A DNA stretch of 63,321 nt, counting the filler, from Nemertoderma westbladi (Eukaryota; Animalia; Xenacoelomorpha): the NCBI GenBank assembly GCA_032718475.1. It is 3 parts of 3 records of this genome, joined end to end, with 100 filler letters (N's around TTAATTAATTAA, not from the genome) between each part and the next. Parts side by side here need not be neighbours in the genome. Positions count along the whole stretch, not along the records: positions 30,013 to 58,407 come from JAUCBJ010003583.1; 2 more parts are not named here. One strand, given 5' to 3'. The notes under the pieces are model-generated. The model was not told the origin of the DNA, ran no database searches, and worked only from the letters and a program-made list of their open reading frames with translations. Of this stretch, positions 7,904 to 58,507 are shown one piece after another; within the stretch, counting starts at the first letter, position 1, and each line of letters begins with the position of its first letter. The position numbers and the translations under genes are program-made.

Positions 7904-8039
7904 TCGAGTAGAGTTTAGTCGTCCAAGCATTGGACTGAGGGGGGTGGGATTGAGGGTGAGACGCCCTTCCCACACATAAAAATAAAAAAAAATAAAAAAT
8001 AGTACATAATAGGTACGCAGTAAGTAGGCAGATAGAAGT

Positions 8040-12375: not shown

Positions 12376-12942
12376 TGTTAGCGAATTCAATTCCGCTAGT
12401 CACCCCATAACGTGAGCTTTAAGCAATATTGGAACTACAAGTTTGATTACCAATCAACCTTGTATCACCCCAATAAGCGGGGCGACAAACCCCAAAGGGA
12501 CACACACAGCGGGGATCAGAGGTTACACCTCCGGGAGGGAGAGAGTGACAGTAGCGGGGGGAAGCACTCCCAGAGAGATGGGAGGGCGAGAAGTGAGTTA
12601 TTAGCCAATGGGGGGAAGGCATCCACTGAGTAATGTAATACGGCCAACCAGTGCAATATATATTACCAGTTACTATGTCATTTCATTTACTTTAGTTAGT
12701 CAGTTCAGTTAGGGTAGTACGGTAACTCTTAACACAGTCTACTGCCGCCATCATTCACTTTACTTTAGTTAATCAATTACCATCTGACTGTGTCTACACT
12801 TTATCCATTTAACGTTTATATTATACATATATTGGAGAATTAACAACATCAGAACTCTCAAACGATCCTTTCACATACACACGGCGGGGACGCGTAGTTA
12901 AGATAACCGGATAAATCGGGATCCTTGGTGGATCCCGTCACA
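12376..12942 (+). mobile_element. 3' LTR of the BEL/Pao element
   Basis: PPT GGGGGGGAG (12367-12375) then TGTTAG. Ends ...GTCACA before an abrupt switch to AT-rich DNA. An alternative end is TAACA at 12845. Confidence 0.65.
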
Positions 12943-29912: not shown

Positions 29913-30012
29913 NNNNNNNNNNNNNNNNNNNNNNNNNNNNNNNNNNNNNNNNNNNNTTAATTAATTAANNNNNNNNNNNNNNNNNNNNNNNNNNNNNNNN
30001 NNNNNNNNNNNN
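29913..30012. other. Artificial contig spacer
   Basis: N44 + TTAATTAATTAA (stops in all six frames) + N44 = 100 bp. Confidence 0.97.
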
Positions 30013-31404: not shown

Positions 31405-31646
31405 ACATCCATGATGGATCGGTCCAACATCGATGATGGATCCGTCCAACATCCATGATGGATCCGTCCAACATCGATGATGGATCCGTCCAACATCCAT
31501 GATGGATCCGTCCAACATCCATGATGGATCCGTCCAACATCGATGATGGATCCGTCCAACATCCATGATGGATCCGTCCAACATCCATGATGGATCCGTC
31601 CAACATCCATGATGGATCCGTCCAACATCGATGATGGATCCCTCCA
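31405..31646 (+). repeat. 22-bp minisatellite (~11 copies)
   Basis: Unit gatggatccgtccaacatccat. Confidence 0.95.
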
Positions 31647-31838
31647 ATTATCATTACAAAAGAAAAAGGTTAGTACTGTTGTAGTACGTAAGCCCTATAT
31701 GGTAAGCTCTCCTAAACAAAAACAATCAGAAACTACAGTATACCATCGCTTAACCCTAGAGGGGTCCTACTTGTGACCAGGGGTCCATGCCCCTCTTGTC
31801 TCCAGGGGGACACGAGCCGCACATTGTATTCGCCCTTT

Positions 31839-34295: not shown

Positions 34296-35495
34296 ACTCA
34301 GATACTTGCGCTACGGAGACTGATTAAGTCAAAGTAATCTCCCCGCAGTCATGACTTTTGTGGACTTCAAGAAGGCATTCGGCTCCATCCATAGAGGTAA
34401 AATGCTTGAAATCCTAAGAGCTTATGGAATACCAGAAGTAATTGTTGCTGGCATTGGATTGTTATATTGTGACACAGAAGCACAGGTACTCTCACCAGAT
34501 GGTGAAACTGAGTTTTTCTCAATCCTGGCTGGCGTACTGCAAGGTGACACATTAGCACCATTACTATTTGTAATTGTGCTGGATTACGCAATGAGGACGG
34601 CCACAAAAGGTGAAGATCTGGGATTCACACTTCAAGAGCGCAGAAGTAGTAGATATCCGGCAACTACAATCACAGAGACAGACTTTGCGGATGACATCGC
34701 CCTGCTCTCTAATACCCTAGCATATGCACAGCTTCTACTAAATAAAGTGGAGAGGGCTGCTAAGGAGGTTGGATTGCATATAAATGCTACCAAGACCGAA
34801 TTCATGACCTTTAATGTTGATGGAAACTTAACAACCATTGATAATAATCAAAAAAAGGAAGGTCGATGACTTCCAGTTCCTTGGATCATGGATAGAAGAG
34901 AGTAGCAAAAAGGACATAGAAGTTAGGAAAGCAAAGGCTTGGGTAGCTCTATCAAAAATGGATACCATCTGGAAATCAGATCTCTCCAGGCAACTGAAGA
35001 CTAAGTTCTTTCGAGCCACAGTGGAAAGTGTATTTTTATACGGGGGTGAGACCTGGACACTGACTAAATCACTTGAACAACGAATTGATGGTTGCTACAC
35101 AAGACAACTAAGGGCAGCCCTAAACATCAGCTGGAGACAACACATGACAAACGCCGAGCTTTATGGTACACTACCACCTGTATCAACCACCCTCCGTGAA
35201 CGCAGATTAAGATTCAGTGGCCACTGCTGGCGAAGTAAAGACGAGGTCATACCAGATCTACTTCTCTGGCAACCAACTCATGGAAAGCGTAGTCGTGGAC
35301 GACCTGCCATAACATATATAGATCAACTTGAAAGGGATACTGAACTTGGGAGAAACGAAATTGCGACAACTATGGAGAATCGGGAAGCCTGGAAGGATCT
35401 CATTTCCACTGTCCGAGTTCGCTCGACCTAGTAGTAGTTGGAGAATCGGGAAGCCTGGAAGGATCTCATTTCCACTGTCTGAGTTCGCTCGACTA
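34296..35495 (+). mobile_element. 5'-truncated RTE-clade LINE (RT), one frameshift, duplicated 3' end
   Basis: FVDFKKAF, GVLQGDTLAPLLF, FADDIAL, FQFLGS, RRLRFSGH; (TAG)n tail. ~66 bp at 35373-35438 is repeated immediately after. Confidence 0.92.
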
Positions 35496-35588: not shown

Positions 35589-35807
35589 CTAGGACGCAGC
35601 ACAGTTTAGCAGCCAACCTCAACCCTTCCAGACATAGATTTATATTCTCTCGATCCTTTAGACTAGACTCCTTGGCGCCCTCCATCCCGAGAATTAACGC
35701 GATACATCCAAGAGTTGGTGTCGAGGTCCGTCTCCGAAGTGGACGAGCCAGGATCTCTAGTATCCGAGGCCACGATTGTATAAATATCTTCCGAGACAGT
35801 AGAATAC
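35589..35807 (-). CDS. ARFGEF3: ARFGEF3/BIG3 internal exon C
   Basis: poly-C cag acceptor and gtgagt donor; 219 nt, phase 1-1. ILLSRKIFIQSWPRILEILARPL..LILGMEGAKE..CLEGLRLAAKLCCVLG resembles BIG3 as recalled (..FILGAEGIKE..SLDGLRKAARLSCALG). Confidence 0.85.
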
Positions 35808-35869
35808 CTGCGGGGGGGGGGGGGAGGTAGTTACATAACCGCACGGTTAGTCTTTGTCTCGACTTGTCC

Positions 35870-38800
35870 CGGTTAGTAAACAACCCAACACTTACTAGCT
35901 CTGTTTCTCTGACTGCTATCCTTTTCTTTTAGTCTCACATTATATTGTTTCGGTTAGTAAACAACCCAACACTTACTAGCTCTGTTTCTCTGACTGCTAT
36001 CCTTTTCTTTTAGTCTCACATTATATTGTTTCGGTTAGTAAACAACCCAACACTTACTGGCTCTGTTTCTCGGACTGCTATCCTTTTCTTTTAGTCTCAC
36101 ATTATATTGTTTCGGTTAGTAAACAACCCAACACTTACTGGCTCTGTTTCTCGGACTGCTATCCTTTTCTTTAACTCTCACATTATATTGTTTCGGTTAG
36201 TAAACAACCCAACACTTACTGGCTCTGTTTCTCGGACTGCTATCCTTTTCTTTTAGTCTCACATTATATTGTTTCGGTTAGTAAACAACCCAACACTTAC
36301 TGGCTCTGTTTCTCGGACTGCTATCCTTTTCTTTAACTCTCACATTATATTGTTTCGGTTAGTAAACAACCCAACACTTACTGGCTCTGTTTCTCGGACT
36401 GCTATCCTTTTCTTTAACTCTCACATTATATTGTTTCGGTTAGTAAACAACCCAACACTTACTGGCTCTGTTTCTCGGACTGCTATCCTTTTCTTTAACT
36501 CTCACATTATATTGTTTAGGTTAGTAAACAACCCAACACTTACTGGCTCTGTTTCTCGGACTGCTATCCTTTTCTTTAACTCTCACATTATATTGTTTCG
36601 GTTAGTAAACAACCCAACACTTACTGGCTCTGTTTCTCGGACTGCTATCCTTTTCATTTAGTCTCACATTATATTGTTTCGGTTAGTAAACAACCCAACA
36701 CTTACTGGCTCTGTTTCTCGGACTGCTATCCTTTTCATTTAGTCTCACATTATATTGTTTCGGTTAGTAAACAACCCAACACTTACTGGCTCTGTTTCTC
36801 GGACTGCTATCCTTTTCTTTAACTCTCACATTATATTGTTTCGGTTAGTAAACAACCCAACACTTACTGGCTCTGTTTCTCGGACTGCTATCCTTTTCTT
36901 TAACTCTCACATTATATTGTTTCGGTTAGTAAACAACCCAACACTTACTGGCTCTGTTTCTCGGACTGCTATCCTTTTCTTTAACTCTCACATTATATTG
37001 TTTCGGTTAGTAAACAACCCAACACTTACTGGCTCTGTTTCTCGGACTGCTATCCTTTTCTTTAACTCTCACATTATATTGTTTCGGTTAGTAAACAACC
37101 CAACACTTACTGGCTCTGTTTCTCGGACTGCTATCCTTTTCTTTAACTCTCACATTATATTGTTTCGGTTAGTAAACAACCCAACACTTACTGGCTCTGT
37201 TTCTCGGACTGCTATCCTTTTCTTTAACTCTCACATTATATTGTTTCGGTTAGTAAACAACCCAACACTTACTGGCTCTGTTTCTCGGACTGCTATCCTT
37301 TTCTTTTACTCTCACATTATATTGTTTCGGTTAGTAAACAACCCAACACTTACTGGCTCTGTTTCTCGGACTGCTATCCTTTTCTTTAACTCTCACATTA
37401 TATTGTTTCGGTTAGTAAACAACCCAACACTTACTGGCTCTGTTTCTCGGACTGCTATCCTTTTCTTTTACTCTCACATTATATTGTTTCGGTTAGTAAA
37501 CAACCCAACACTTACTGGCTCTGTTTCTCGGACTGCTATCCTTTTCTTTTAGTCTCACATTATATTGTTTAGGTTAGTAAACAACCCAACACTAACTGGC
37601 TCTGTTTCTCGGACTGCTATCCCTTTCTTTTAGTCTCACATTATATTGTTTCGGTTAGTAAACAACCCAACACTTACTGGCTCTGTTTCTCGGACTGCTA
37701 TCCCTTTCTTTTACTCTCACATTATATTGTTTCGGTTAGTAAACAACCCAACACTTACTGGCTCTGTTTCTCGGACTGCTATCCTTTTCTTTAACTCTCA
37801 CATTATATTGTTTCGGTTAGTAAACAACCCAACACTTACTGGCTCTGTTTCTCGGACTGCTATCCTTTTCATTTAGTCTCACATTATATTGTTTCGGTTA
37901 GTAAACAACCCAACACTTACTGGCTCTGTTTCTCGGACTGCTATCCCTTTCTTTTACTCTCACATTATATTGTTTCGGTTAGTAAACAACCCAACACTTA
38001 CTGGCTCTGTTTCTCGGACTGCTATCCTTTTCTTTTACTCTCACATTATATTGTTTCGGTTAGTAAACAACCCAACACTTACTGGCTCTGTTTCTCGGAC
38101 TGCTATCCTTTTCTTTTAGTCTCACATTATATTGTTTAGGTTAGTAAACAACCCAACACTAACTGGCTCTGTTTCTCGGACTGCTATCCCTTTCTTTTAG
38201 TCTCACATTATATTGTTTCGGTTAGTAAACAACCCAACACTTACTGGCTCTGTTTCTCGGACTGCTATCCTTTTCTTTAACTCTCACATTATATTGTTTC
38301 GGTTAGTAAACAACCCAACACTTACTGGCTCTGTTTCTCGGACTGCTATCCTTTTCTTTTAGTCTCACATTATATTGTTTCGGTTAGTAAACAACCCAAC
38401 ACTTACTGGCTCTGTTTCTCGGACTGCTATCCTTTTCTTTAACTCTCACATTATATTGTTTCGGTTAGTAAACAACCCAACACTTACTGGCTCTGTTTCT
38501 CGGACTGCTATCCTTTTCATTTAGTCTCACATTATATTGTTTCGGTTAGTAAACAACCCAACACTTACTGGCTCTGTTTCTCGGACTGCTATCCTTTTCT
38601 TTTACTCTCACATTATATTGTTTCGGTTAGTAAACAACCCAACACTTACTGGCTCTGTTTCTCGGACTGCTATCCTTTTCTTTTAGTCTCACATTATATT
38701 GTTTCGGTTAGTAAACAACCCAACACTTACTGGCTCTGTTTCTCGGACTGCTATCCCTTTCTTTTAGTCTCACATTATATTGTTTCGGTTAGTAAACAAC

Positions 38801-41800
38801 CCAACACTTACTGGCTCTGTTTCTCGGACTGCTATCCTTTTCTTTAACTCTCACATTATATTGTTTCGGTTAGTAAACAACCCAACACTTACTGGCTCTG
38901 TTTCTCGGACTGCTATCCTTTTCTTTTACTCTCACATTATATTGTTTCGGTTAGTAAACAACCCAACACTTACTGGCTCTGTTTCTCGGACTGCTATCCT
39001 TTTCTTTAACTCTCACATTATATTGTTTCGGTTAGTAAACAACCCAACACTTACTGGCTCTGTTTCTCGGACTGCTATCCTTTTCTTTAACTCTCACATT
39101 ATATTGTTTCGGTTAGTAAACAACCCAACACTTACTGGCTCTGTTTCTCGGACTGCTATCCTTTTCTTTAACTCTCACATTATATTGTTTCGGTTAGTAA
39201 ACAACCCAACACTTACTGGCTCTGTTTCTCGGACTGCTATCCTTTTCTTTAACTCTCACATTATATTGTTTCGGTTAGTAAACAACCCAACACTTACTGG
39301 CTCTGTTTCTCGGACTGCTATCCTTTTCTTTAACTCTCACATTATATTGTTTCGGTTAGTAAACAACCCAACACTTACTGGCTCTGTTTCTCGGACTGCT
39401 ATCCTTTTCTTTAACTCTCACATTATATTGTTTCGGTTAGTAAACAACCCAACACTTACTGGCTCTGTTTCTCGGACTGCTATCCTTTTCTTTAACTCTC
39501 ACATTATATTGTTTCGGTTAGTAAACAACCCAACACTTACTGGCTCTGTTTCTCGGACTGCTATCCTTTTCTTTAACTCTCACATTATATTGTTTCGGTT
39601 AGTAAACAACCCAACACTTACTGGCTCTGTTTCTCGGACTGCTATCCTTTTCTTTAACTCTCACATTATATTGTTTCGGTTAGTAAACAACCCAACACTT
39701 ACTGGCTCTGTTTCTCGGACTGCTATCCTTTTCTTTAACTCTCACATTATATTGTTTCGGTTAGTAAACAACCCAACACTTACTGGCTCTGTTTCTCGGA
39801 CTGCTATCCTTTTCTTTAACTCTCACATTATATTGTTTCGGTTAGTAAACAACCCAACACTTACTGGCTCTGTTTCTCGGACTGCTATCCTTTTCTTTAA
39901 CTCTCACATTATATTGTTTCGGTTAGTAAACAACCCAACACTTACTGGCTCTGTTTCTCGGACTGCTATCCTTTTCTTTAACTCTCACATTATATTGTTT
40001 CGGTTAGTAAACAACCCAACACTTACTGGCTCTGTTTCTCGGACTGCTATCCTTTTCTTTTAGTCTCACATTATATTGTTTCGGTTAGTAAACAACCCAA
40101 CACTTACTGGCTCTGTTTCTCGGACTGCTATCCTTTTCTTTAACTCTCACATTATATTGTTTCGGTTAGTAAACAACCCAACACTTACTGGCTCTGTTTC
40201 TCGGACTGCTATCCTTTTCTTTAACTCTCACATTATATTGTTTCGGTTAGTAAACAACCCAACACTTACTGGCTCTGTTTCTCGGACTGCTATCCTTTTC
40301 TTTAACTCTCACATTATATTGTTTCGGTTAGTAAACAACCCAACACTTACTGGCTCTGTTTCTCGGACTGCTATCCTTTTCTTTTAGTTTCACATTATAT
40401 TGTTTCGGTTAGTAAACAACCCAACACTTACTGGCTCTGTTTCTCGGACTGCTATCCTTTTCTTTTAGTTTCACATTATATTGTTTCGGTTAGTAAACAA
40501 CCCAACACTTACTGGCTCTGTTTCTCGGACTGCTATCCTTTTCTTTAACTCTCACATTATATCGTTTCGGTTAGTAAACAACCCAACACTTACTGGCTCT
40601 GTTTCTCGGACTGCTATCCTTTTCTTTAACTCTCACATTATATTGTTTCGGTTAGTAAACAACCCAACACTTACTGACTCTGTTTCTCGGACTGCTATCC
40701 TTTTCTTTTAGTTTCACATTATATTGTTTCGGTTAGTAAACAACCCAACACTTACTGGCTCTGTTTCTCGGACTGCTATCCTTTTCTTTTAGTTTCACAT
40801 TATATTGTTTCGGTTAGTAAACAACCCAACACTTACTGGCTCTGTTTCTCGGACTGCTATCCTTTTCTTTAACTCTCACATTATATCGTTTCGGTTAGTA
40901 AACAACCCAACACTTACTGGCTCTGTTTCTCGGACTGCTATCCTTTTCTTTAACTCTCACATTATATTGTTTCGGTTAGTAAACAACCCAACACTTACTG
41001 ACTCTGTTTCTCGGACTGCTATCCTTTTCTTTTAGTTTCACATTATATTGTTTCGGTTAGTAAACAACCCAACACTTACTGGCTCTGTTTCTCGGACTGC
41101 TATCCTTTTCTTTAACTCTCACATTATATTGTTTCGGTTAGTAAACAACCCAACACTTACTGACTCTGTTTCTCGGACTGCTATCCTTTTCTTTTAGTTT
41201 CACATTATATTGTTTCGGTTAGTAAACAACCCAACACTTACTGGCTCTGTTTCTCGGACTGCTATCCTTTTCTTTTAGTTTCACATTATATTGTTTCGGT
41301 TAGTAAACAACCCAACACTTACTGGCTCTGTTTCTCGGACTGCTATCCTTTTCTTTAACTCTCACATTATATCGTTTCGGTTAGTAAACAACCCAACACT
41401 TACTGGCTCTGTTTCTCGGACTGCTATCCTTTTCTTTAACTCTCACATTATATTGTTTCGGTTAGTAAACAACCCAACACTTACTGACTCTGTTTCTCGG
41501 ACTGCTATCCTTTTCTTTTAGTTTCACATTATATTGTTTCGGTTAGTAAACAACCCAACACTTACTGGCTCTGTTTCTCGGACTGCTATCCTTTTCTTTA
41601 ACTCTCACATTATATTGTTTCGGTTAGTAAACAACCCAACACTTACTGGCTCTGTTTCTCGGACTGCTATCCTTTTCTTTAACTCTCACATTATATCGTT
41701 TCGGTTAGTAAACAACCCAACACTTACTGGCTCTGTTGATCGGACTGCTATCCTTTTCTTTAACTCTCACATTATATTGTTTCGGTTAGTAAACAACCCA

Positions 41801-44800
41801 ACACTTACTGGCTCTGTTTCTCGGACTGCTATCCTTTTCTTTAACTCTCACATTATATTGTTTCGGTTAGTAAACAACCCAACACTTACTGGCTCTGTTT
41901 CTCGGACTGCTATCCTTTTCTTTAACTCTCACATTATATCGTTTCGGTTAGTAAACAACCCAACACTTACTGGCTCTGTTGATCGGACTGCTATCCTTTT
42001 CTTTAACTCTCACATTATATTGTTTCGGTTAGTAAACAACCCAACACTTACTGGCTCTGTTTCTCGGACTGCTATCCTTTTCTTTAACTCTCACATTATA
42101 TCGTTTCGGTTAGTAAACAACCCAACACTTACTGGCTCTGTTGATCGGACTGCTATCCTTTTCTTTAACTCTCACATTATATTGTTTCGGTTAGTAAACA
42201 ACCCAACACTTACTGGCTCTGTTTCTCGGACTGCTATCCTTTTCTTTAACTCTCACATTATATTGTTTCGGTTAGTAAACAACCCAACACTTACTGACTC
42301 TGTTTCTCGGACTGCTATCCTTTTCTTTTAGTTTCACATTATATTGTTTCGGTTAGTAAACAACCCAACACTTACTGGCTCTGTTTCTCGGACTGCTATC
42401 CTTTTCTTTAACTCTCACATTATATTGTTTCGGTTAGTAAACAACCCAACACTTACTGGCTCTGTTTCTCGGACTGCTATCCTTTTCTTTTAGTCTCACA
42501 TTATATTGTTTCGGTTAGTAAACAACCCAACACTTACTGGCTCTGTTTCTCGGACTGCTATCCTTTTCTTTTAGTTTCACATTATATTGTTTCGGTTAGT
42601 AAACAACCCAACACTTACTGGCTCTGTTTCTCGGACTGCTATCCTTTTCTTTAACTCTCACATTATATTGTTTCGGTTAGTAAACAACCCAACACTTACT
42701 GGCTCTGTTTCTCGGACTGCTATCCTTTTCTTTAACTCTCACATTATATTGTTTCGGTTAGTAAACAACCCAACACTTACTGACTCTGTTTCTCGGACTG
42801 CTATCCTTTTCTTTTAGTTTCACATTATATTGTTTCGGTTAGTAAACAACCCAACACTTACTGGCTCTGTTTCTCGGACTGCTATCCTTTTCTTTTAGTT
42901 TCACATTATATTGTTTCGGTTAGTAAACAACCCAACACTTACTGGCTCTGTTTCTCGGACTGCTATCCTTTTCTTTAACTCTCACATTATATTGTTTCGG
43001 TTAGTAAACAACCCAACACTTACTGACTCTGTTTCTCGGACTGCTATCCTTTTCTTTTAGTTTCACATTATATTGTTTCGGTTAGTAAACAACCCAACAC
43101 TTACTGGCTCTGTTTCTCGGACTGCTATCCTTTTCTTTAACTCTCACATTATATTGTTTCGGTTAGTAAACAACCCAACACTTACTGGCTCTGTTTCTCG
43201 GACTGCTATCCTTTTCTTTAACTCTCACATTATATTGTTTCGGTTAGTAAACAACCCAACACTTACTGGCTCTGTTTCTCGGACTGCTATCCTTTTCTTT
43301 TAGTTTCACATTATATTGTTTCGGTTAGTAAACAACCCAACACTTACTGGCTCTGTTTCTCGGACTGCTATCCTTTTCTTTAACTCTCACATTATATTGT
43401 TTCGGTTAGTAAACAACCCAACACTTACTGACTCTGTTTCTCGGACTGCTATCCTTTTCTTTTAGTTTCACATTATATTGTTTCGGTTAGTAAACAACCC
43501 AACACTTACTGGCTCTGTTTCTCGGACTGCTATCCTTTTCTTTAACTCTCACATTATATTGTTTCGGTTAGTAAACAACCCAACACTTACTGGCTCTGTT
43601 TCTCGGACTGCTATCCTTTTCTTTAACTCTCACATTATATTGTTTCGGTTAGTAAACAACCCAACACTTACTGGCTCTGTTTCTCGGACTGCTATCCTTT
43701 TCTTATAGTCTCACATTATAATATTGTTTCGGTTAGTAAACAACCCAACACTTACTGGCTCTGTTTCTCGGACTGCTATCCTTTTCTTTAACTCTCACAT
43801 TATATTGTTTCGGTTAGTAAACAACCCAACACTTACTGGCTCTGTTTCTCGGACTGCTATACTTTTCTTATAGTCTCACATTATAATATTGTTTCGGTTA
43901 GTAAACAACCCAACACTTACTGGCTCTGTTTCTCGGACTGCTATCCTTTTCTTTAACTCTCACATTATATCGTTTCGGTTAGTAAACAACCCAACACTTA
44001 CTGGCTCTGTTTCTCGGACTGCTATCTTTTTCTTATAGTCTCACATTATATTGTTACGGTTAGTAAACAACCCAACACTTACTGGCTCTGTTTCTCGGAC
44101 TGCTATCCTTTTCTTTAACTCTCACATTATATTGTTTCGGTTAGTAAACAACCCAACACTTACTGACTCTGTTTCTCGGACTGCTATCCTTTTCTTTAAC
44201 TCTCACATTATATTGTTACGGTTAGTAAACAACCCAACACTTACTGGCTCTGTTTCTCGGACTGCTATCCTTTTCTTTAACTCTCACATTATATTGTTTC
44301 GGTTAGTAAACAACCCAACACTTACTGGCTCTGTTCCTCGGACTGCTACCCTTTTCTTTAACTCTCACATTATATTGTTTCGGTTAGTAAACAACCCAAC
44401 ACTTACTGGCTCTGTTTCTCGGACTGCTACCCTTTTCTTTAACTCTCACATTATATTGTTTCGGTTAGTAAACAAACCAACACTTACTGGCTCTGTTTCT
44501 CGGACTGCTATCCTTTTCTTTTAGTCTCACATTATATTGTTACGGTTAGTAAACAACCCAACACTTACTGGCTCTGTTCCTCGGACTGCTATCCTTTTCT
44601 TTAACTCTCACATTATATTGTTTCGGTTAGTAAACAACCCAACACTTACTGGCTCTGTTCCTCGGACTGCTATCCTTTTCTTTAACTCTCACATTATATT
44701 GTTTCGGTTAGTAAACAACCCAACACTTACTGGCTCTGTTCCTCGGACTGCTACCCTTTTCTTTAACTCTCACATTATATTGTTTCGGTTAGTAAACAAC

Positions 44801-47800
44801 CCAACACTTACTGGCTCTGTTTCTCGGACTGCTACCCTTTTCTTTAACTCTCACATTATATTGTTTCGGTTAGTAAACAACCCAACACTTACTGGATCTG
44901 TTCCTCGGACTGCTACCCTTTTCTTTAACTCTCACATTATATTGTTTCGGTTAGTAAACAACCCAACACTTACTGGCTCTGTTTCTCGGACTGCTACCCT
45001 TTTCTTTAACTCTCACATTATATTGTTTCGGTTAGTAAACAACCCAACACTTACTGGCTCTGTTCCTCGGACTGCTATCCTTTTCTTTAACTCTCACATT
45101 ATATTGTTTCGGTTAGTAAACAACCCAACACTTACTGGCTCTGTTTCTCGGACTGCTACCCTTTTCTTTAACTCTCACATTATATTGTTTCGGTTAGTAA
45201 ACAACCCAACACTTACTGGCTCTGTTTCTCGGACTGCTACCCTTTTCTTTAACTCTCACATTATATTGTTTCGGTTAGTAAACAACCCAACACTTACTGG
45301 CTCTGTTTCTCGGACTGCTACCCTTTTCTTTAACTCTCACATTATATTGTTTCGGTTAGTAAACAACCCAACACTTACTGGCTCTGTTTCTCGGACTGCT
45401 ATCCTTTTCTTTAACTCTCACATTATATTGTTTCGGTTAGTAAACAACCCAACACTTACTGGCTCTGTTCCTCGGACTGCTATCCTTTTCTTTAACTCTC
45501 ACATTATATTGTTTCGGTTAGTAAACAACCCAACACTTACTGGCTCTGTTCCTCGGACTGCTACCCTTTTCTTTAACTCTCACATTATATTGTTTCGGTT
45601 AGTAAACAACCCAACACTTACTGGCTCTGTTTCTCGGACTGCTATCCTTTTCTTTAACTCTCACATTATATTGTTTCGGTTAGTAAACAACCCAACACTT
45701 ACTGGCTCTGTTTCTCGGACTGCTATCCTTTTCTTTAACTCTCACATTATATTGTTTCGGTTAGTAAACAACCCAACACTTACTGGCTCTGTTTCTCGGA
45801 CTGCTACCCTTTTCTTTAACTCTCACATTATATTGTTTCGGTTAGTAAACAACCCAACACTTACTGGCTCTGTTTCTCGGACTGCTATCCTTTTCTTTAA
45901 CTCTCACATTATATTGTTTCGGTTAGTAAACAACCCAACACTTACTGGCTCTGTTTCTCGGACTGCTACCCTTTTCTTTAACTCTCACATTATATTGTTT
46001 CGGTTAGTAAACAACCCAACACTTACTGGCTCTGTTTCTCGGACTGCTATCCTTTTCTTTAACTCTCACATTATATTGTTTCGGTTAGTAAACAACCCAA
46101 CACTTACTGGCTCTGTTTCTCGGACTGCTATCCTTTTCTTTAACTCTCACATTATATTGTTTCGGTTAGTAAACAACCCAACACTTACTGGCTCTGTTTC
46201 TCGGACTGCTATCCTTTTCTTTAACTCTCACATTATATTGTTTCGGTTAGTAAACAACCCAACACTTACTGGCTCTGTTTCTCGGACTGCTATCCTTTTC
46301 TTTAACTCTCACATTATATTGTTTCGGTTAGTAAACAACCCAACACTTACTGGCTCTGTTTCTCGGACTGCTATCCTTTTCTTTAACTCTCACATTATAT
46401 TGTTTCGGTTAGTAAACAACCCAACACTTACTGGCTCTGTTTCTCGGACTGCTATCCTTTTCTTTAACTCTCACATTATATTGTTTCGGTTAGTAAACAA
46501 CCCAACACTTACTGGCTCTGTTTCTCGGACTGCTATCCTTTTCTTTAACTCTCACATTATATTGTTTCGGTTAGTAAACAACCCAACACTTACTGGCTCT
46601 GTTTCTCGGACTGCTATCCTTTTCTTTAACTCTCACATTATATTGTTTCGGTTAGTAAACAACCCAACACTTACTGGCTCTGTTTCTCGGACTGCTATCC
46701 TTTTCTTTAACTCTCACATTATATTGTTTCGGTTAGTAAACAACCCAACACTTACTGGCTCTGTTTCTCGGACTGCTATCCTTTTCTTTAACTCTCACAT
46801 TATATTGTTTCGGTTAGTAAACAACCCAACACTTACTGGCTCTGTTTCTCGGACTGCTATCCTTTTCTTTAACTCTCACATTATATTGTTTCGGTTAGTA
46901 AACAACCCAACACTTACTGGCTCTGTTTCTCGGACTGCTATCCTTTTCTTTAACTCTCACATTATATTGTTTCGGTTAGTAAACAACCCAACACTTACTG
47001 GCTCTGTTTCTCGGACTGCTATCCTTTTCTTTAACTCTCACATTATATTGTTTCGGTTAGTAAACAACCCAACACTTACTGGCTCTGTTTCTCGGACTGC
47101 TATCCTTTTCTTTAACTCTCACATTATATTGTTTCGGTTAGTAAACAACCCAACACTTACTGGCTCTGTTTCTCGGACTGCTATCCTTTTCTTTAACTCT
47201 CACATTATATTGTTTCGGTTAGTAAACAACCCAACACTTACTGGCTCTGTTTCTCGGACTGCTACCCTTTTCTTTAACTCTCACATTATATTGTTTCGGT
47301 TAGTAAACAACCCAACACTTACTGGCTCTGTTTCTCGGACTGCTACCCTTTTCTTTAACTCTCACATTATATTGTTTCGGTTAGTAAACAACCCAACACT
47401 TACTGGCTCTGTTTCTCGGACTGCTATCCTTTTCTTTAACTCTCACATTATATTGTTTCGGTTAGTAAACAACCCAACACTTACTGGCTCTGTTTCTCGG
47501 ACTGCTACCCTTTTCTTTAACTCTCACATTATATTGTTTCGGTTAGTAAACAACCCAACACTTACTGGCTCTGTTTCTCGGACTGCTATCCTTTTCTTTA
47601 ACTCTCACATTATATTGTTTCGGTTAGTAAACAACCCAACACTTACTGGCTCTGTTTCTCGGACTGCTACCCTTTTCTTTAACTCTCACATTATATTGTT
47701 TCGGTTAGTAAACAACCCAACACTTACTGGCTCTGTTTCTCGGACTGCTACCCTTTTCTTTAACTCTCACATTATATTGTTTCGGTTAGTAAACAACCCA

Positions 47801-50800
47801 ACACTTACTGGCTCTGTTTCTCGGACTGCTATCCTTTTCTTTAACTCTCACATTATATTGTTTCGGTTAGTAAACAACCCAACACTTACTGGCTCTGTTT
47901 CTCGGACTGCTACCCTTTTCTTTAACTCTCACATTATATTGTTTCGGTTAGTAAACAACCCAACACTTACTGGCTCTGTTTCTCGGACTGCTACCCTTTT
48001 CTTTAACTCTCACATTATATTGTTTCGGTTAGTAAACAACCCAACACTTACTGGCTCTGTTTCTCGGACTGCTACCCTTTTCTTTAACTCTCACATTATA
48101 TTGTTTCGGTTAGTAAACAACCCAACACTTACTGGCTCTGTTTCTCGGACTGCTATCCTTTTCTTTTAGTCTCACATTATATTGTTTCGGTTAGTAAACA
48201 ACCCAACACTTACTGGCTCTGTTTCTCGGACTGCTATCCTTTTCTTATAGTCTCACATTAATATTGTTTCGGTTAGTAAACAACCCAACACTTACTGGCT
48301 CTGTTCCTCGGACTGCTATCCTTTTCTTTAACTCTCACATTATATTGTTTCGGTTAGTAAACAACCCAACACTTACTGGCTCTGTTCCTCGGACTGCTAT
48401 CCTTTTCTTTAACTCTCACATTATATTGTTTCGGTTAGTAAACAACCCAACACTTACTGGCTCTGTTCCTCGGACTGCTATCCTTTTCTTTAACTCTCAC
48501 ATTATATTGTTTCGGTTAGTAAACAACCCAACACTTACTGGCTCTGTTTCTCGGACTGCTATCCTTTTCTTTAACTCTCACATTATATTGTTTCGGTTAG
48601 TAAACAACCCAACACTTACTGGCTCTGTTTCTCGGACTGCTATCCTTTTCTTTAACTCTCACATTATATTGTTTCGGTTAGTAAACAACCCAACACTTAC
48701 TGGCTCTGTTTCTCGGACTGCTATCCTTTTCTTTAACTCTCACATTATATTGTTTCGGTTAGTAAACAACCCAACACTTACTGGCTCTGTTTCTCGGACT
48801 GCTATCCTTTTCTTATAGTCTCACATTATAATATTGTTTCGGTTAGTAAACAACCCAACACTTACTGGCTCTGTTTCTCGGACTGCTATCCTTTTCTTTA
48901 ACTCTCACATTATATTGTTTCGGTTAGTCAACAACCCAACACTTACTGGCTCTGTTTCTCGGACTGCTATCCTTTTCTTATAGTCTCACATTATATTGTT
49001 TCGGTTAGTAAACAACCCAACACTTACTGGCTCTGTTTCTCGGACTGCTATACTTTTCTTATAGTCTCACATTATAATATTGTTTCGGTTAGTAAACAAC
49101 CCAACACTTACTGGCTCTGTTTCTCGGACTGCTATCCTTTTCTTTAACTCTCACATTATATTGTTTCGGTTAGTAAACAACCCAACACTTACTGACTCTG
49201 TTTCTCGGACTGCTATCCTTTTCTTTAACTCTCACATTATATTGTTTCGGTTAGTAAACAACCCAACACTTACTAGCTCTGTTTCTCGGACTGCTATCCT
49301 TTTCTTTAACTCTCACATTATATTGTTTCGGTTAGTAAACAACCCAACCCTTACTGACTCTGTTTCTCGGACTGCTATCCTTTTCTTTAACTGTCACATT
49401 ATATTGTTTCGGTTAGTAAACAACCCAACACTTACTGGCTCTGTTCCTCGGACTGCTATCCTTTTCTTTAACTCTCACATTATATTGTTTCGGTTAGTAA
49501 ACAACCCAACACTTACTGGCTCTGTTCCTCGGACTGCTATCCTTTTCTTTAACTCTCACATTATATTGTTTCGGTTAGTAAACAACCCAACACTTACTAG
49601 CTCTGTTTCTCGGACTGCTATCCTTTTCTTTAACTCTCACATTATATTGTTTCGGTTAGTAAACAACCCAACACTTACTGACTCTGTTTCTCGGACTGCT
49701 ATCCTTTTCTTTAACTCTCACATTATATTGTTTCGGTTAGTAAACAACCCAACACTTACTAGCTCTGTTTCTCGGACTGCTATCCTTTTCTTTAACTCTC
49801 ACATTATATTGTTTCGGTTAGTAAACAACCCAACACTTACTGACTCTGTTTCTCGGACTGCTATCCTTTTCTTTAACTCTCACATTATATTGTTTCGGTT
49901 AGTAAACAACCCAACACTTACTGACTCTGTTTCTCGGACTGCTATCCTTTTCTTTAAGGCTCACATTATATTGTTTCGGTTAGTAAACAACCCCAACACT
50001 TACTGGCTCTGTTTCTCGGACTGCTATCCTTTTCTTTTAGTCTCACATTATATTGTTTCGGTTAGTAAACAACCCAACACTTACTGGCTCTGTTTCTCGG
50101 ACTGCTATCCTTTTCTTTAACTCTCACATTATATTGTTTCGGTTAGTAAACAACCCAACACTTACTGGCTCTGTTTCTCGGACTGCTATCCTTTTCTTTA
50201 ACTCTCACATTATATCGTTTCGGTTAGTAAACAACCCAACACTTACTGACTCTGTTTCTCGGACTGCTACCCTTTTCTTTAACTCTCACATTATATCGTT
50301 TCGGTTAGTAAACAACCCAACACTTACTGACTCTGTTTCTCGGACTGCTATCCTTTTCTTTTAGTCTCACATTATATTGTTTCGGTTAGTAAACAACCCA
50401 ACACTTACTGGCTCTGTTTCTCGGACTGCTACCCTTTTCTTTAACTCTCACATTATATCGTTTCGGTTAGTAAACAACCCAACACTTACTGACTCTGTTT
50501 CTCGGACTGCTATCCTTTTCTTTAACTCTCACATTATATTGTTTCGGTTAGTAAACAACCCAACCCTTACTGGCTCTGTTTCTCGGACTGCTATCCTTTT
50601 CTTTTAGTCTCACATTATATTGTTTCGGTTAGTAAACAACCCAACACTTACTGGCTCTGTTTCTCGGACTGCTACCCTTTTCTTTAACTCTCACATTATA
50701 TCGTTTCGGTTAGTAAACAACCCAACACTTACTGACTCTGTTTCTCGGACTGCTATCCTTTTCTTTAACTCTCACATTATATCGTTTCGGTTAGTAAACA

Positions 50801-53800
50801 ACCCAACACTTACTGACTCTGTTTCTCGGACTGCTATCCTTTTCTTTAACTCTCACATTATATTGTTTCGGTTAGTAAACAACCCAACACTTACTGGCTC
50901 TGTTTCTCGGACTGCTATCCTTTTCTTTAACTCTCACATTATATTGTTTCGGTTAGTAAACAACCCAACCCTTACTGGCTCTGTTTCTCGGACTGCTATC
51001 CTTTTCTTTTAGACTCACATTATATTGTTTCGGTTAGTAAACAACCCAACACTTACTGGCTCTGTTTCTCGGACTGCTATCCTTTTCTTTAACTCTCACA
51101 TTATATTGTTTCGGTTAGTAAACAACCCAACACTTACTGACTCTGTTTCTCGGACTGCTATCCTTTTCTTTAACTCTCACATTATATTGTTTCGGTTAGT
51201 AAACAACCCAACACTTACTGGCTCTGTTTCTCGGACTGCTACCCTTTTCTTTAACTCTCACATTATATCGTTTCGGTTAGTAAACAACCCAACACTTACT
51301 GACTCTGTTTCTCGGACTGCTATCCTTTTCTTTAACTCTCACATTATATTGTTTCGGTTAGTAAACAACCCAACCCTTACTGGCTCTGTTTCTCGGACTG
51401 CTATCCTTTTCTTTTAGTCTCACATTATATTGTTTCGGTTAGTAAACAACCCAACACTTACTGGCTCTGTTTCTCGGACTGCTACCCTTTTCTTTAACTC
51501 TCACATTATATCGTTTCGGTTAGTAAACAACCCAACACTTACTGACTCTGTTTCTCGGACTGCTATCCTTTTCTTTAACTCTCACATTATATTGTTTCGG
51601 TTAGTAAACAACCCAACACTTACTGGCTCTGTTTCTCGGACTGCTATCCTTTTCTTATAGTCTCACATTATATTGTTTCGGTTAGTAAACAACCCAACAC
51701 TTACTGGCTCTGTTTCTCGGACTGCTATACTTTTCTTATAGTCTCACATTATAATATTGTTTCGGTTAGTAAACAACCCAACACTTACTGGCTCTGTTTC
51801 TCGGACTGCTATCCTTTTCTTTAACTCTCACATTATATTGTTTCGGTTAGTAAACAACCCAACACTTACTGGCTCTGTTTCTCGGACTGCTATCCTTTTC
51901 TTTAACTCTCACATTATATTGTTTCGGTTAGTAAACAACCCAACACTTACTGGCTCTGTTTCTCGGACTGCTATCCTTTTCTTTAACTCTCACATTATAT
52001 TGTTTCGGTTAGTAAACAACCCAACACTTACTGGCTCTGTTTCTCGGACTGCTATCCTTTTCTTTAACTCTCACATTATATTGTTTCGGTTAGTAAACAA
52101 CCCAACACTTACTGACTCTGTTTCTCGGACTGCTACCCTTTTCTTTAACTCTCACATTATATCGTTTCGGTTAGTAAACAACCCAACACTTACTGACTCT
52201 GTTTCTCGGACTGCTATCCTTTTCTTTTAGTCTCACATTATATTGTTTCGGTTAGTAAACAACCCAACACTTACTGGCTCTGTTTCTCGGACTGCTACCC
52301 TTTTCTTTAACTCTCACATTATATCGTTTCGGTTAGTAAACAACCCAACACTTACTGACTCTGTTTCTCGGACTGCTATCCTTTTCTTTAACTCTCACAT
52401 TATATTGTTTCGGTTAGTAAACAACCCAACCCTTACTGGCTCTGTTTCTCGGACTGCTATCCTTTTCTTTTAGTCTCACATTATATTGTTTCGGTTAGTA
52501 AACAACCCAACACTTACTGGCTCTGTTTCTCGGACTGCTATCCTTTTCTTTAACTCTCACATTATATTGTTTCGGTTAGTAAACAACCCAACACTTACTG
52601 GCTCTGTTTCTCGGACTGCTATCCTTTTCTTTAACTCTCACATTATATCGTTTCGGTTAGTAAACAACCCAACACTTACTGACTCTGTTTCTCGGACTGC
52701 TATCCTTTTCTTTAACTCTCACATTATATTGTTTCGGTTAGTAAACAACCCAACCCTTACTGGCTCTGTTTCTCGGACTGCTATCCTTTTCTTTTAGACT
52801 CACATTATATTGTTTCGGTTAGTAAACAACCCAACACTTACTGGCTCTGTTTCTCGGACTGCTACCCTTTTCTTTAACTCTCACATTATATTGTTTCGGT
52901 TAGTAAACAACCCAACCCTTACTGGCTCTGTTTCTCGGACTGCTATCCTTTTCTTTTAGACTCACATTATATTGTTTCGGTTAGTAAACAACCCAACCCT
53001 TACTGGCTCTGTTTCTCGGACTGCTATCCTTTTCTTTTAGACTCACATTATATTGTTTCGGTTAGTAAACAACCCAACCCTTACTGGCTCTGTTTCTCGG
53101 ACTGCTATCCTTTTCTTTAACTCTCACATTATATCGTTTCGGTTAGTAAACAACCCAACACTTACTGACTCTGTTTCTCGGACTGCTATCCTTTTCTTTA
53201 ACTCTCACATTATATTGTTTCGGTTAGTAAACAACCCAACCCTTACTGGCTCTGTTTCTCGGACTGCTATCCTTTTCTTTTAGACTCACATTATATTGTT
53301 TCGGTTAGTAAACAACCCAACCCTTACTGGCTCTGTTTCTCGGACTGCTATCCTTTTCTTTTAGACTCACATTATATTGTTTCGGTTAGTAAACAACCCA
53401 ACACTTACTGGCTCTGTTTCTCGGACTGCTATCCTTTTCTTTAACTCTCACATTATATCGTTTCGGTTAGTAAACAACCCAACCCTTACTGGCTCTGTTT
53501 CTCGGACTGCTATCCTTTTCTTTTAGACTCACATTATATTGTTTCGGTTAGTAAACAACCCAACACTTACTGACTCTGTTTCTCGGACTGCTATCCTTTT
53601 CTTTAACTCTCACATTATATTGTTTCGGTTAGTAAACAACCCAACACTTACTGGCTCTGTTTCTCGGACTGCTATCCTTTTCTTTAACTCTCACATTATA
53701 TTGTTTCGGTTAGTAAACAACCCAACCCTTACTGGCTCTGTTTCTCGGACTGCTATCCTTTTCTTTTAGACTCACATTATATTGTTTCGGTTAGTAAACA

Positions 53801-54365
53801 ACCAAACCCTTACTGGCTCTGTTTCTCGGACTGCTATCCTTTTCTTTTAGACTCACATTATATTGTTTCGGTTAGTAAACAACCCAACACTTACTGGCTC
53901 TGTTTCTCGGACTGCTATCCTTTTCTTTTAGACTCACATTATATTGTTTCGGTTAGTAAACAACCCAACACTTACTGGCTCTGTTTCTCGGACTGCTATC
54001 CTTTTCTTTAACTCTCACATTATATTGTTTCGGTTAGTAAACAACCCAACACTTACTAGCTCTGTTTCTCGGACTGCTACCCTTTTCTTTAACTCTCACA
54101 TTATATTGTTTCGGTTAGTAAACAACCCAACACTTACTGGCTCTGTTTCTCGGACTGCTATCCTTTTCTTTAACTCTCACATTATATTGTTTCGGTTAGT
54201 AAACAACCCAACCCTTACTGGCTCTGTTTCTCGGACTGCTATCCTTTTCTTTAACTCTCACATTATATTGTTTCGGTTAGTAAACAACCCAACACTTACT
54301 GGCTCTGTTTCTCGGACTGCTATCCTTTTCTTTAAGGCTCACATTATATTGTTTCGGTTTGTAAA
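35870..54365 (-). repeat. 81-bp tandem array (~228 units) derived from the BIG3 exon B / intron junction
   Basis: Minus-strand unit cgaaacaatataatgtgagagttaaagaaaaggatagcagtccgagaaacagagcca|GTAAGTgttgggttgttTACTAAC. 18485 bp / 81 = ~228. The first copy in transcript order is the coding end of exon B. Confidence 0.97.
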
Positions 54366-54425
54366 GGTCTCCGGCATTGTGCATTAGTTTCCCGTCGTCA
54401 TTAAGATTTGGAATGCCTTCAATAT
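54300..54425 (-). CDS. ARFGEF3: ARFGEF3/BIG3 internal exon B (absent from the ORF track)
   Basis: tttattttggtag acceptor and gtaagt donor; 126 nt, phase 1-1. Encodes DIEGIPNLNDDGKLMHNAGDLYKPKQYNVSLKEKDSSPRNRA and joins exons A and C in frame (LLT|DIEG matches BIG3 MLTDIDG). Confidence 0.82.
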
Positions 54426-54750
54426 CTACCAAAATAAAGTAATTATTATTAATTTCATGTCCGTTGAGACACAGACAATAACGAAAGATTAAGATTAACC
54501 TACTAACTACATATTAGTTTGTGGTTCCAGTAACAATAAATCTTTTTATTGTCACAATAGAAATTGATGAACATTACTTGCTTCATGTCACTTTTACAAA
54601 ACAATCCATAGATTCACCATGACATCATTCGCCATGCATAATCACACAATTTTTAGGTCCGCGTAGCGAGACCTATATGGTAAACACTCAGTTGGTGTTG
54701 TTGGTGTTGTTGTAGGAACTGTCTGAGAATAAGGATAATAAATAACGCAC

Positions 54751-54913
54751 CTGTTAGTAATTGAATGAGAGTGCAGTTGCTATAACGACCGTGGGAGTAT
54801 CCACCCTGAGACAGTAAATCGGTAGACATAACAAAATCATAGACTTGGCTCAACCACGTGGTAGACAGGTATATAAGAACACCACTAGAGTGAACCTCCT
54901 CCACAAATTCTTG
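54751..54913 (-). CDS. ARFGEF3: ARFGEF3/BIG3 internal exon A
   Basis: tttctacag acceptor and gtgcgt donor; 163 nt. QEFVEEVHSSGVLIYLSTTWLSQVY..LLSQGGY..LIQLLT resembles BIG3 (VQTSGVLMVFSQAWIEELY..LITMLT). Confidence 0.85.
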
Positions 54914-55376
54914 CTGTAGAAATACAAAAATAACAGATAAACAAATAAATAAAAACTTTGACGTTAAAATATTCCCTTTTTTGTCCGCAAAAGTGGACAA
55001 AATAATTATTTATTACTTGGGGAAAAAAATTATTTTTTATCACTATTTTCGAAGTATAAAATATACGGAGCTTCAGCGAGTTTACTATTGATAAAATATT
55101 CACGATTTTTACCCATGTAGGTAGTAATGGTATACCCTACTATACCATTACTACTCATGTAGGCCGAATTGAACATAATCTTAAATTGTTATTTTTTGTC
55201 GCTTAAGGGGGGGGGGGGGGGGGGGGTATCGTTCAATTTTGGCTAAAAATTATTTGGGGCCATTTTCGAGCGAAAGCCCTCAAAACGGCCTTTTTGGGTC
55301 TTTTTGTGTATAATGGTCCCAGCTCAATTTCAGCCAAAATTTCTCGATAGCATTGGATGCAACCATGAATTGAACG

Positions 55377-58300
55377 ACTTATAATACCCATGCACTCCCC
55401 CCAACCTGTGTCGCAGTGTCCCGTTCTAGGACTTATAATACCCATGCACTCCCCCCAACCTGTAGTCCCGTTCTAGGACTTATAATACCCATGCACTCCC
55501 CCCAACCTGTGTCCCGATCTAGGACTTATAATACCCATGCACTCCCCCCAACCTGTGTCCCGTTCTAGGACTTATAATACCCATGCACCCCCCCCCAACC
55601 AGTGTCCCGTTCTAGGACTTATAATACCCATGCACTCCCCCCAACCTGTGTCCCGTTCTAGGACTTATAATACCCATGCACTCCCCCCAACCTGTGTCCC
55701 GTTCTAGGACTTATAATACCCATGCACTCCCCCCAACCTGTGTCCCGTTCTAGGACTTATAATACCCATGCACTCCCCCCAACCTGTGCCCCAGTGTCCC
55801 GTTCTAGGACTTATAATACCCATGCACTCCCCCCAACCTGTGTCCCGTTCTCGGACTTATAATACCCATGCACTCCCCCCAACCTGTGTCCCAGTGTCCC
55901 GTTCTAGGACTTATAATACCCATGCACTCCCCCCAACCTCCCAGTGTCCCGTTCTAGGACTTACAATACCCATGCACTCCCCCCAACCTGTGTCCCGTTC
56001 TCGGACTTATAATACCCATGCACTCCCCCCAACCTGTGTCCCGTTCTAGGACTTATAATACCCATGCACTCCCCCCAACCTGTGTCCCGTTCTAGGACTT
56101 ATAATACCCATGCACTCCCCCCAACCTGTGTCCCGTTCTAGGACTTATAATACCCATGCACTCCCCCCAACCTGTGTCCAGTGTCCCGTTCTAGGACTTA
56201 TAATACCCATGCACCCCCCCCAACCTGTGTCCCGTTCTAGGACTTATAATACCCATGCACTCCCCCCAACCTGTGTCCCGTTCTAGGACTTATAATACCC
56301 ATGCACTCCCCCCAACCTGTGTCCCAGTGTCCCGTTCTAGGACTTATAATACCCATGCACTCCCCCCCAACCAGTGTCCCGTTTTCGGACTTATAATACC
56401 CATGCACTCCCCCCAACCTGTGTCCCGTTCTAGGACTTATAATACCCATGCACTCCCCCAACCTGTGTCCCGTTCTAGGACTTATAATACCCATGCACTC
56501 CCCCCAACCTGTGCCCCAGTGTCCCGTTCTAGGACTTATAATACCCATGCACTCTCCCAACCTGTGTCCCAGTGTCCCGTTCTAGGTCTTATAATACCCA
56601 TGCACTCCCCCCAACCTGTGTCCCGTTTTCGGACTTACAATACCCATGCACTCCCCCCAACCTGTGTCCCAGTGTCCCGTTCTAGGACTTATAATACCCA
56701 TGCACTCCCCCCAACCAGTGTCCCGTTTTCGGACTTACAATACCCATGCACTCCCCCCAACCTGTGTCCCGTTTTCGGACTTATAATACCCATGCACTCC
56801 CCCCAACCTGTGTCCCGTTTTCGGACTTATAATACCCATGCACTCCCCCCAACCTGTGTCCCGTTCTAGGACTTATAATACCCATGCACTCCCCCCAACC
56901 TGTGCCCCAGTGTCCCGTTCTAGGACTTATAATACCCATGCACTCTCCCAACCTGTGTCCCAGTGTCCCGTTCTAGGTCTTATAATACCCATGCACTCCC
57001 CCCAACCAGTGTCCCGTTTTCGGACTTACAATACCCATGCACTCCCCCCAACCTGTGTCCCAGTGTCCCGTTCTAGGACTTACAATACCCATGCACTCCC
57101 CCCAACCTGTGTCCCGTTTTCGGACTTATAATACCCATGCACTCCCCCCAACCTGTGTCCCGTTCTAGGACTTATAATACCCATGCACTCCCCCCAACCT
57201 GTGTCCCGTTCTAGGACTTATAATACCCATGCACTCCCCCCAACCTGTGTCCCGTTCTAGGACTTATAATACCCATGCACTCCCCCCAACCTGTGTCCCA
57301 GTGTCCCGTTCTAGGACTTATAATACCCATGCACTCCCCCCAACCAGTGTCCCGTTCTCACTCCCCCCAACCTGTGTCCCGTTCTAGGACTTATAATACC
57401 CATGCACTCCCCCCAACCTGTGTCCCGTTCTAGGACTTATAATACCCATGCACTCCCCCCAACCTGTGTCCCAGTGTCCCGTTCTAGGACTTATAATACC
57501 CATGCACTCCCCCCACCTGTCCCCAACCATGTGTCCCGTTTTCGGACTTACAATACCCATGCACTCCCCCCAACCTGTGTCCCAGTGTCCCGTTCTAGGA
57601 CTTATAATACCCATGCACTCCCCCCAACCTGTGTCCCGTTTTCGGACTTATAATACCCATGCACTCCCCCCAACCTGTGTCCCGTTCTAGGACTTATAAT
57701 ACCCATGCACTCCCCCCAACCTGTGTCCCGTTCTAGGACTTATAATACCCATGCACCCCCCCCCTCCCCCACCAACCTGTGTCCCGTTCTAGGACTTATA
57801 ATACCCATGCACTCCCCCCAACCTGTGTCCCGTTCTAGGACTTATAATACCCATGCACTCCCCCCAACCTGTGTCCAGTGCCCGTTCTAGGACTTATAAT
57901 ACCCATGCACTCCCCCCCAACCTGTGTCCCGTTCTAGGACTTATAATACCCATGCACTCCCCCCAACCTGTGTCCCGTTCTAGGACTTATAATACCCATG
58001 CACTCCCCCCAACCTGTGTCCCAGTGTCCCGTTCTAGGACTTATAATACCCATGCACTCCCCCCAACCAGTGTCCCGTTCCATTCTCACTCCCCCCAACC
58101 TGTGTCCCGTTCTAGGACTTATAATACCCATGCACTCCCCCCAACCTGTGTCCCGTTCTAGGACTTATAATACCCATGCACTCCCCCCAACCTGTGCTCC
58201 CGTTCTAGGACTTATAATACCCATGCACTCCCCCCAACCTGTGTCCCAGTGTCCCGTTCTAGGACTTATAATACCCATGCACTCCCCCCAACCAGTGTCC

Positions 58301-58407
58301 CGTTTTCGGACTTACAATACCCATGCACTCCCCCCAACCTGTGTCCCAGTGTCCCGTTCTAGGACTTATAATACCCATGCACTCCCCCCAACCAGTGTCC
58401 CGTTTTC
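55377..58407 (+). repeat. 46/54-bp C-rich minisatellite (~3 kb, open at the gap)
   Basis: Unit ttctaggacttataatacccatgcactccccccaacctgtgtcccg, with an optional 8-bp ccagtgtc insert. Confidence 0.97.
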
Positions 58408-58507
58408 NNNNNNNNNNNNNNNNNNNNNNNNNNNNNNNNNNNNNNNNNNNNTTAATTAATTAANNNNNNNNNNNNNNNNNNNNNNNNNNNNNNNNNNNNN
58501 NNNNNNN
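58408..58507. other. Artificial contig spacer
   Basis: N44 + TTAATTAATTAA + N44. Confidence 0.97.

Follow-up and report, generated by a model that had tools for sequence, protein, structure and literature searches.

Analysis of a 63,321-nucleotide stretch of DNA from Nemertoderma westbladi (GenBank assembly GCA_032718475.1; hereafter the window) showed that one 18.5-kb intron, in the gene identified below as BIG3/ARFGEF3, consists almost entirely of tandem copies of its own exon end and 5′ splice site (donor). We hold with good confidence that this is a minisatellite spanning the exon end and donor, likely begun by a duplication primed by microhomology, that its growth to 228 copies was likely neutral, and that the first donor is the one predicted to be used. 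The features are collected in Table 1.

The array had a period of 81 bp, 228.1 copies and 97% matches, as determined with Tandem Repeats Finder (TRF), and lies wholly within one 28.4-kb contig (30013-58407) that has an N-linker at each end. When split into units it gave 228 (221 of 81 nt, five of 84 and two of 82), belonging to 43 unit types. The GT of the 5′ splice site was kept in every one, as GTAAGT in 211, GTAAGG in 15 and GTTAGT in two; the wider contexts were CCA/GTAAGT in 178 units, TCA/GTAAGT in 27 and CTA/GTAAGT in six (slash, exon-intron border). The donors run from 54299 to 35895, and the array makes up more than 99% of the intron. Unit 1 is the true end of the BIG3 exon with its own donor, while the final unit is followed by 62 nt of unique intron and then by the exon C acceptor. 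The unit boundary is ambiguous across an 11-nt microhomology, which leaves an exon-derived part of 55-66 nt and an intron part of 15-26 nt.

Table 1. Features of the BIG3 locus in the window (positions count along the whole window; X2 is a public sequencing run described in the text)
Feature	Position	Strand	Remarks
BIG3 exon A, 163 nt	54751..54913	minus	acceptor TACAG, donor CAG/GTGCGT; 35-48% identity to named BIG3 proteins (tblastn); 56.4 bits on BIG3 profile
Intron A-B, 325 nt, unique	54426..54750	minus	from sequence; bridged by one exact 676-bp contig of run X2
BIG3 exon B, 126 nt, phase 1-1 (skipping preserves frame)	54300..54425	minus	last 55-66 nt are the exon-derived unit part
Minisatellite	35870..54365	minus	228 x 81 bp, 43 unit types, 227 pseudo-donors; every junction reads ACTAAC, mostly 10 nt, TAAY
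Exonic copy of 11-nt microhomology (TTTACAAACCG), start of unit 1	54355..54365	minus	10/11 identical to intronic copy 81 nt off
Authentic 5′ splice site CCA/GTAAGT (donor 1 of 228)	54294..54299	minus	sole donor keeping frame open into exon C; use in RNA predicted
In-frame TAA	54277..54279	minus	included by every donor past the first; 58 nt upstream of donor 2
Intronic copy of microhomology (TTTACTAACCG), array end	35870..35880	minus	from sequence
Unique intron tail, 62 nt	35808..35869	minus	branch-point candidates, C-rich tract, CAG acceptor; 16/16 pyrimidines before acceptor
BIG3 exon C, 219 nt	35589..35807	minus	donor TAG/GTGAGT; 36 relatives at E ≤ 0.001

Judged from its sequence, the host gene is BIG3/ARFGEF3. 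All three exons are open with canonical splice sites and, when joined, form one open frame of 169 codons. A search of 1.84 billion representatives with exon C returned 36 relatives at E ≤ 0.001; six of the eight clusters whose names were looked up were BIG3 or BIG3-like; of the other two, one is listed as unnamed and one carries no name. Pfam analysis of the six longest relatives found DCB in five, and the three full-length ones, which go by the name BIG3, also contained HDS and BIG2_C. Matches to exon A in BIG3 proteins sit just upstream of the exon C match (tblastn), and downstream of the degenerate Sec7 domain the sequence fits BIG3 orthologs in both order and spacing. Against a profile built from seven orthologs, the joined exons scored 148.8 bits in one stretch, and exons A and C without B scored 121.7 in two pieces. 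Exon B alone was not significant on this profile; it is intact, begins with the conserved DIxG motif, and encodes 43 residues versus 37-40 in orthologs (seven of nine measured by pattern; one pattern stopped early and one failed).

The joining of exons B and C was examined in other animals. In one distant animal locus, L001, the B and C stretches form a single exon with 40 residues in the exon B span, and because they are encoded contiguously there, the B-C join is confirmed without recourse to splice-site guesses. In that locus (L001:1406-1738) the B-C intron is absent, but an acceptor is present where the A-B intron would lie. Among the 23 short open reading frames (ORFs) listed from other animals, most turn unrelated just before the conserved glycine, which likely means that vertebrates have the B-C intron at the same position and that it predates the array. 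Three ORFs from other animals (P0003, P0032 and P0033) have peptides repeated in tandem immediately ahead of the exon C match, a hint that the acceptor end of this BIG3 intron carries minisatellites there as well.

Only three BIG3 exons were found within the window. A Pfam scan of them gave no families, and a PDB sequence search gave two chance matches only. No homologs of exon C or exon A were found among proteins below 2000 aa, full-length BIG3 being about 2200 aa. An Atlas search gave a best score of 0.87, with Sec7-like HDS/HUS clusters at 0.83-0.85, which serve as leads only. A search of metagenome contigs found no close relative and one distant locus, L001, and thus no sister-species intron. 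An Rfam scan of 53800-55400 gave no matches.

The initial annotation of this stretch had described about 228 tandem copies of an exon end and 5′ splice site, the first being the real exon end (donor at 54299) and the last running into about 60 nt of unique intron and the exon C acceptor, in a gene named as BIG3/ARFGEF3. This description was confirmed; the protein aligned with BIG3-named relatives. An ancestral intron of about 85-90 nt had also been predicted, and a reconstruction from one unit and the tail, rather than from a relative, gave 88 nt. The unit had been divided into about 57 nt of exon and about 24 nt of intron; these values fall within the ambiguous ranges, but the boundary itself is not fixed.

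The reading frame distinguishes the first donor from all others. Of 228 donors, only donor 1 preserves an open frame into exon C, and all 227 later donors take in the TAA. Measured from the exon B acceptor, exon length would be 126 nt with donor 1, 207 nt with donor 2, 288 nt with donor 3, and from 369 nt to 18.5 kb with later donors; every one of these 227 is closer to the exon C acceptor than the true donor is. No acceptor features were identified in the array, which contained no YAG/GT and no pyrimidine run of at least 8. Before any AG of the consensus unit there were at most 6/16 pyrimidines, versus 11-16 at the three real acceptors. Without an acceptor the copies have no means of defining separate exons, and splicing by the canonical recursive route is unlikely; an intron with ratchet points was rejected, as no YAG/GT with an internal pyrimidine tract occurs in the array. 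A coding tandem repeat or a set of duplicated exons was likewise rejected, given the in-frame TAA before every later unit, the missing acceptor, and 14 non-synonymous and two stop alleles.

Use of the first donor in BIG3 is a prediction from reading frame and from precedent. In the proposed mechanism, donor 1 would win since it is the earliest to be transcribed and sits 126 nt from the exon B acceptor, through exon definition and 5′-to-3′ scanning of the kind demonstrated in human F7. Any leakage to donors 2 and 3 would carry a premature stop and be removed by nonsense-mediated decay. Decay requires a stop 50-55 nt before a junction, and 58 nt is just past this; leakage would thus cut output without making a faulty protein. 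As leaked transcripts would be removed, the array could be tolerated and its donors need not be purged.

Two further features of the units were seen. A second donor-like word, AAT/GTGAG, occurs 43 nt ahead of the main donor, at 54342 and at the corresponding point of every unit; it reads GTGAGT in 10 copies, and its use within exon B would shift the frame. In addition, AATATA, which we take to be a weak poly(A)-signal variant, is present in 203 units; a GU-rich tract follows some 50 nt later, and the U1 site falls between the two.

Precedents for such arrays exist. In the human F7 intron 7 37-bp variable number tandem repeat, about 50 constructs showed that splicing picks the most upstream working donor, even where those further downstream are stronger (Borensztajn et al. 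2006, PMC1557585). As in F7, the first BIG3 unit spans the exon-intron boundary and identical donors follow the true one. Unlike F7, with 5-9 copies and 4 exonic nt, the BIG3 array has 228 copies, about 60 exonic nt per unit and more than 99% of the intron, and its donor use is predicted. Further donor-spanning minisatellites summarised in PMC1557585 are those of 6-16 (25 pseudo-sites), CBS intron 13 (15-20 copies), LMNB2 (100 bp x 10-15) and PDGF intron 4 (81 bp x 16-18), the last with the same unit length as BIG3. LMNB2 and PDGF use the true donor only, and 6-16 and CBS the next two as well (PMC1557585). These four have about ten times fewer copies than BIG3, and transcripts were examined in them.

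Lancelet 'mirages' in Adh3, globins, troponin C and PGBD5 are minisatellite-like tandem duplications of exon-intron boundaries (PMC3087553, PMC3902484). They show concerted evolution that spares boundary units; length instability is reported for them, and no harm to splicing. The BIG3 array resembles them as an invertebrate array at an exon-intron boundary with local homogenisation and distinct boundary units, but is confined to the donor side and has 228 units, whereas the lancelet globin cases considered have 3-6 units, and a mirage may duplicate either boundary. Human segmental duplications contain variable internal tandem repeats at exon-intron boundaries, with a mean of 4 units of 30 bp, from which new introns can arise (PMC2812944). 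There, as in BIG3, minisatellite expansion at such a boundary alters gene structure, although the BIG3 intron is likely older than its array and its unit has no acceptor. The literature search found no report of such an array in BIG3 and no published case this large; most subscription journals lay outside it.

The two ends of the array point to its origin. The exonic TTTACAAACCG and the intronic TTTACTAACCG are alike at 10 of 11 positions and exactly 81 nt apart, and of all 11-mer pairs spaced 30 to 149 nt apart in the 214-nt single-unit reconstruction they match best. The likely first event is slippage or unequal exchange that joined these near-copies and doubled 81 bp drawn from the exon end and from an intron of about 88 nt; the usual minisatellite turnover in a repeat-rich region would then have amplified the duplicate, neutrally, to 228 copies. 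TRF intervals assign 83% of the contig to tandem repeats, and the introns to either side contain further arrays. Similarity between units falls with distance: units 2-5 apart differed by 1.81 nt and those beyond 120 by 2.50, as compared with 2.20 in shuffles (standard deviation 0.035). This local homogenisation fits ordinary minisatellite turnover. The first unit and the last two are distinct in type from the rest. Compared with the majority unit, the true exon copy has two adjacent differences (unit positions 29-30, CC in the exon and AG as the array allele), and only one other copy shares the bases of the exon there.

No selection for or against the copied donors was seen in the unit-variant analysis. 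Distinct substitutions in the exon-derived part comprised 4 synonymous, 14 non-synonymous and 2 stops, and 4/9 positions from -3 to +6 of the donor were variable versus 23/81 overall. The array variants thus look unconstrained, with donor positions as variable as the rest. The interpretation given in the initial annotation was partly supported. It had placed most donors nearer the acceptor, which was right in direction but understated. Its near-equivalent donors resemble one another in sequence but differ in where they lie: exons of 126-288 nt come from donors 1-3 alone, and every donor except the first brings in a stop. Its natural experiment in first-come donor choice names the likely mechanism, although that experiment has already been run on 5-26 donors in a studied class (PMC1557585, PMC3087553). 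Its suggestions of U1 decoying and of expression tuned by copy number are unsupported; the analysis turned up no evidence for either, and the array variants look unconstrained.

Alternatives to a neutrally expanded minisatellite were considered. The array could be a regulatory element whose 227 U1 sites and Quaking/STAR (or SF1) motifs tune inclusion of exon B or decay that depends on copy number, but we regard this as unlikely. The bipartite Quaking motif consists of an NACUAAY core and a UAAY half-site within 20 nt, and its exonic binding favours skipping while downstream binding favours inclusion (PMC9786888). Core and half-site were matched in sequence at 227/227 unit junctions, as against 171 of 20000 shuffled units. 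Exon B has no such bipartite motif, reading ACAAAC where each copy has ACTAAC. By the position rule of PMC9786888, STAR sites would then lie inside the pseudo-exons, where they would repress, but only downstream of the real exon, where they would activate. Over the 220 scored 81-nt copies, 10 motif positions never varied (p = 0.028, post hoc), which hints weakly at constraint. However, short introns are expected to contain a branch-point-like word, and one bipartite motif is present already in the single-unit intron; a single seed unit, though copied 228 times, counts as one event rather than as 227 observations, and the other array variants look neutral. A more specific form, improbable in our view, holds that the junction formed by one duplication turned ACAAAC into ACUAAC, giving 227 tandem U1 sites that are each paired with a bipartite Quaking/STAR site. 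Bound STAR protein would then silence the pseudo-exons while activating the true one, and the extent of delay, exon B skipping or decay of BIG3 pre-mRNA would depend on copy number. If true, the array would be a tandem-repeat rheostat built from the gene's own splice site. The Quaking-type motif is a weak lead for regulation.

We likewise give little credence to impaired splicing, in which exon B would often be skipped, at 126 nt with the frame kept, or this gene copy would be dying. The join of exons A and C is open over 127 codons, F7 constructs whose upstream donors were lost gave more exon skipping (PMC1557585), and exon B alone had no score on the BIG3 profile. Set against this, exon B is intact from its DIxG start and fills the ortholog spacing, the three exons are open with canonical sites, and lancelet mirages are reported to leave splicing undisturbed (PMC3087553, PMC3902484).

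The length of the array was assessed from the units themselves and from public sequencing data. The map of unit variants was a mosaic with regional clusters, in which the longest identical stretch holding at least 2 variant units was 7 units, and 275 of 282 substitutions belonged to alleles found in at least 2 units. Neither inflation by an assembler nor read error fits a mosaic of shared alleles. Six public runs were checked, and the stretch was present in two DNA runs of two studies; no run containing it is registered as RNA, a result that carries no information about expression. Run X2 is possibly the source of the assembly and so tests the assembly, not the population. Its three unit contigs had depths of 4043, 5727 and 4585, or 29.9, 31.1 and 30.2 per assembled copy (depth divided by 31-mer occurrences in the assembled array), compared with 35.4 at exon C and 19-39 for five of the six flanking long contigs listed. 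Word depth in X2 thus fits about 200-250 copies. In X1, from another study, a depth of 27 on exons A and B compares with sums of about 1,900-12,400 over the unit, some 70 to 450 times; since neighbouring contigs overlap by 30 nt, summed depth is not copy number, and X1 fixes the order of magnitude only. The depth at exon C was 14.4 in X1.

Run X3, filed under the sample of X1, carried another haplotype at exon C and variant units, with a unit depth of 325 versus 21.7 at exon C (about 15-fold), although its coverage is uneven and its summed depth gives no copy number. There are no GATC sites in the A/B stretch, four in the array and two in the exon C stretch, so a restriction-based library could explain the uneven cover in X3. 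Neither X4 nor X5 covered the exons, and holes in cover prove nothing. On 54266-54365, X3 also showed a variant unit with 5 extra nt, its intron part running into 42 unrelated letters, at a depth of 100 versus 21.7. On the sense strand these letters are pyrimidine-rich and then read CAG, and their sequence is absent from the window; perhaps this is an insertion that was amplified together with the array and brought an acceptor-like site. A dispersed element was rejected, as the 81-bp unit has no match elsewhere in the window and no loose ends at the unit were found in X1 or X2.

Taken together, the array looks real and not a product of assembly. That a short array was inflated by the assembler is hardly credible: its contig is just 28.4 kb and starts and stops in other tandem arrays, no array-spanning read or contig was seen, and X3 shows only its 15-fold depth, but the 43 unit types form a mosaic of shared alleles, the X2 contigs give a depth of about 30 per assembled copy against 35.4 at exon C, and the summed unit depth in X1 runs to thousands against 27.

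Several points weigh against the neutral minisatellite with a used first donor. Donor 1 is no stronger than 210 others, as 211 of 228 pair equally with the end of U1 (-7.5 kcal/mol). The published cases carry 5-26 donors, and any expectation for 228 is extrapolated from them; in two of these cases, 6-16 and CBS, splicing leaks to the two sites that follow, as summarised in PMC1557585. The depth of exons A and B (window 54360-54990) is uneven among runs, at 27 in X1, 4.2 in X2 and none in X3. The microhomology could stem in part from later conversion of the boundary units, and the invariant motif positions noted above hint weakly at constraint.

Identical 100-nt linkers at 29913-30012 and 58408-58507 (44 N, a 12-nt word with stops in all frames, 44 N) join three contigs, whose order across them is not assured. 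Other minisatellites lie at 55416-58407, 30013-31118, 31405-31647, 32774-33481, 24798-28642 and 8049-8664, with units of 46, 50, 22, 21, 41 and 46 bp, respectively; the first four sit in the introns flanking exons A and C, and none has a donor in every unit. A very high-copy repeat at 35300-35490 (X1 summed depth near one million) lies just downstream of exon C, beside a long interspersed nuclear element (LINE) fragment. Broken mobile-element ORFs were found at about 3400-7900 (+), 9100-11700 (+), 13260-15500 (-), 34300-34900 (+), 60970-61820 (-) and 62500-63320 (-); by eye, these look like a BEL/Pao long terminal repeat element, an element with a zinc-knuckle-like motif, PIF/Harbinger transposase pieces, RTE-type LINE pieces and an integrase piece.

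The BIG3 array is of the F7 or mirage type, with its first unit over the real boundary, its donor reiterated through the intron and its units locally homogenised. It is a large further case of a class already known, not a new phenomenon, and opens no new question. It does lie about tenfold beyond the published cases considered here (5-26 donors), in an intron made up to more than 99% of copies of its own donor, and the clean microhomology and exon-specific diagnostic allele make both origin and donor use easy to read. If RNA shows donor 1 still winning, the array would be a strong stress test of first-come choice and exon definition in a short intron turned very long.

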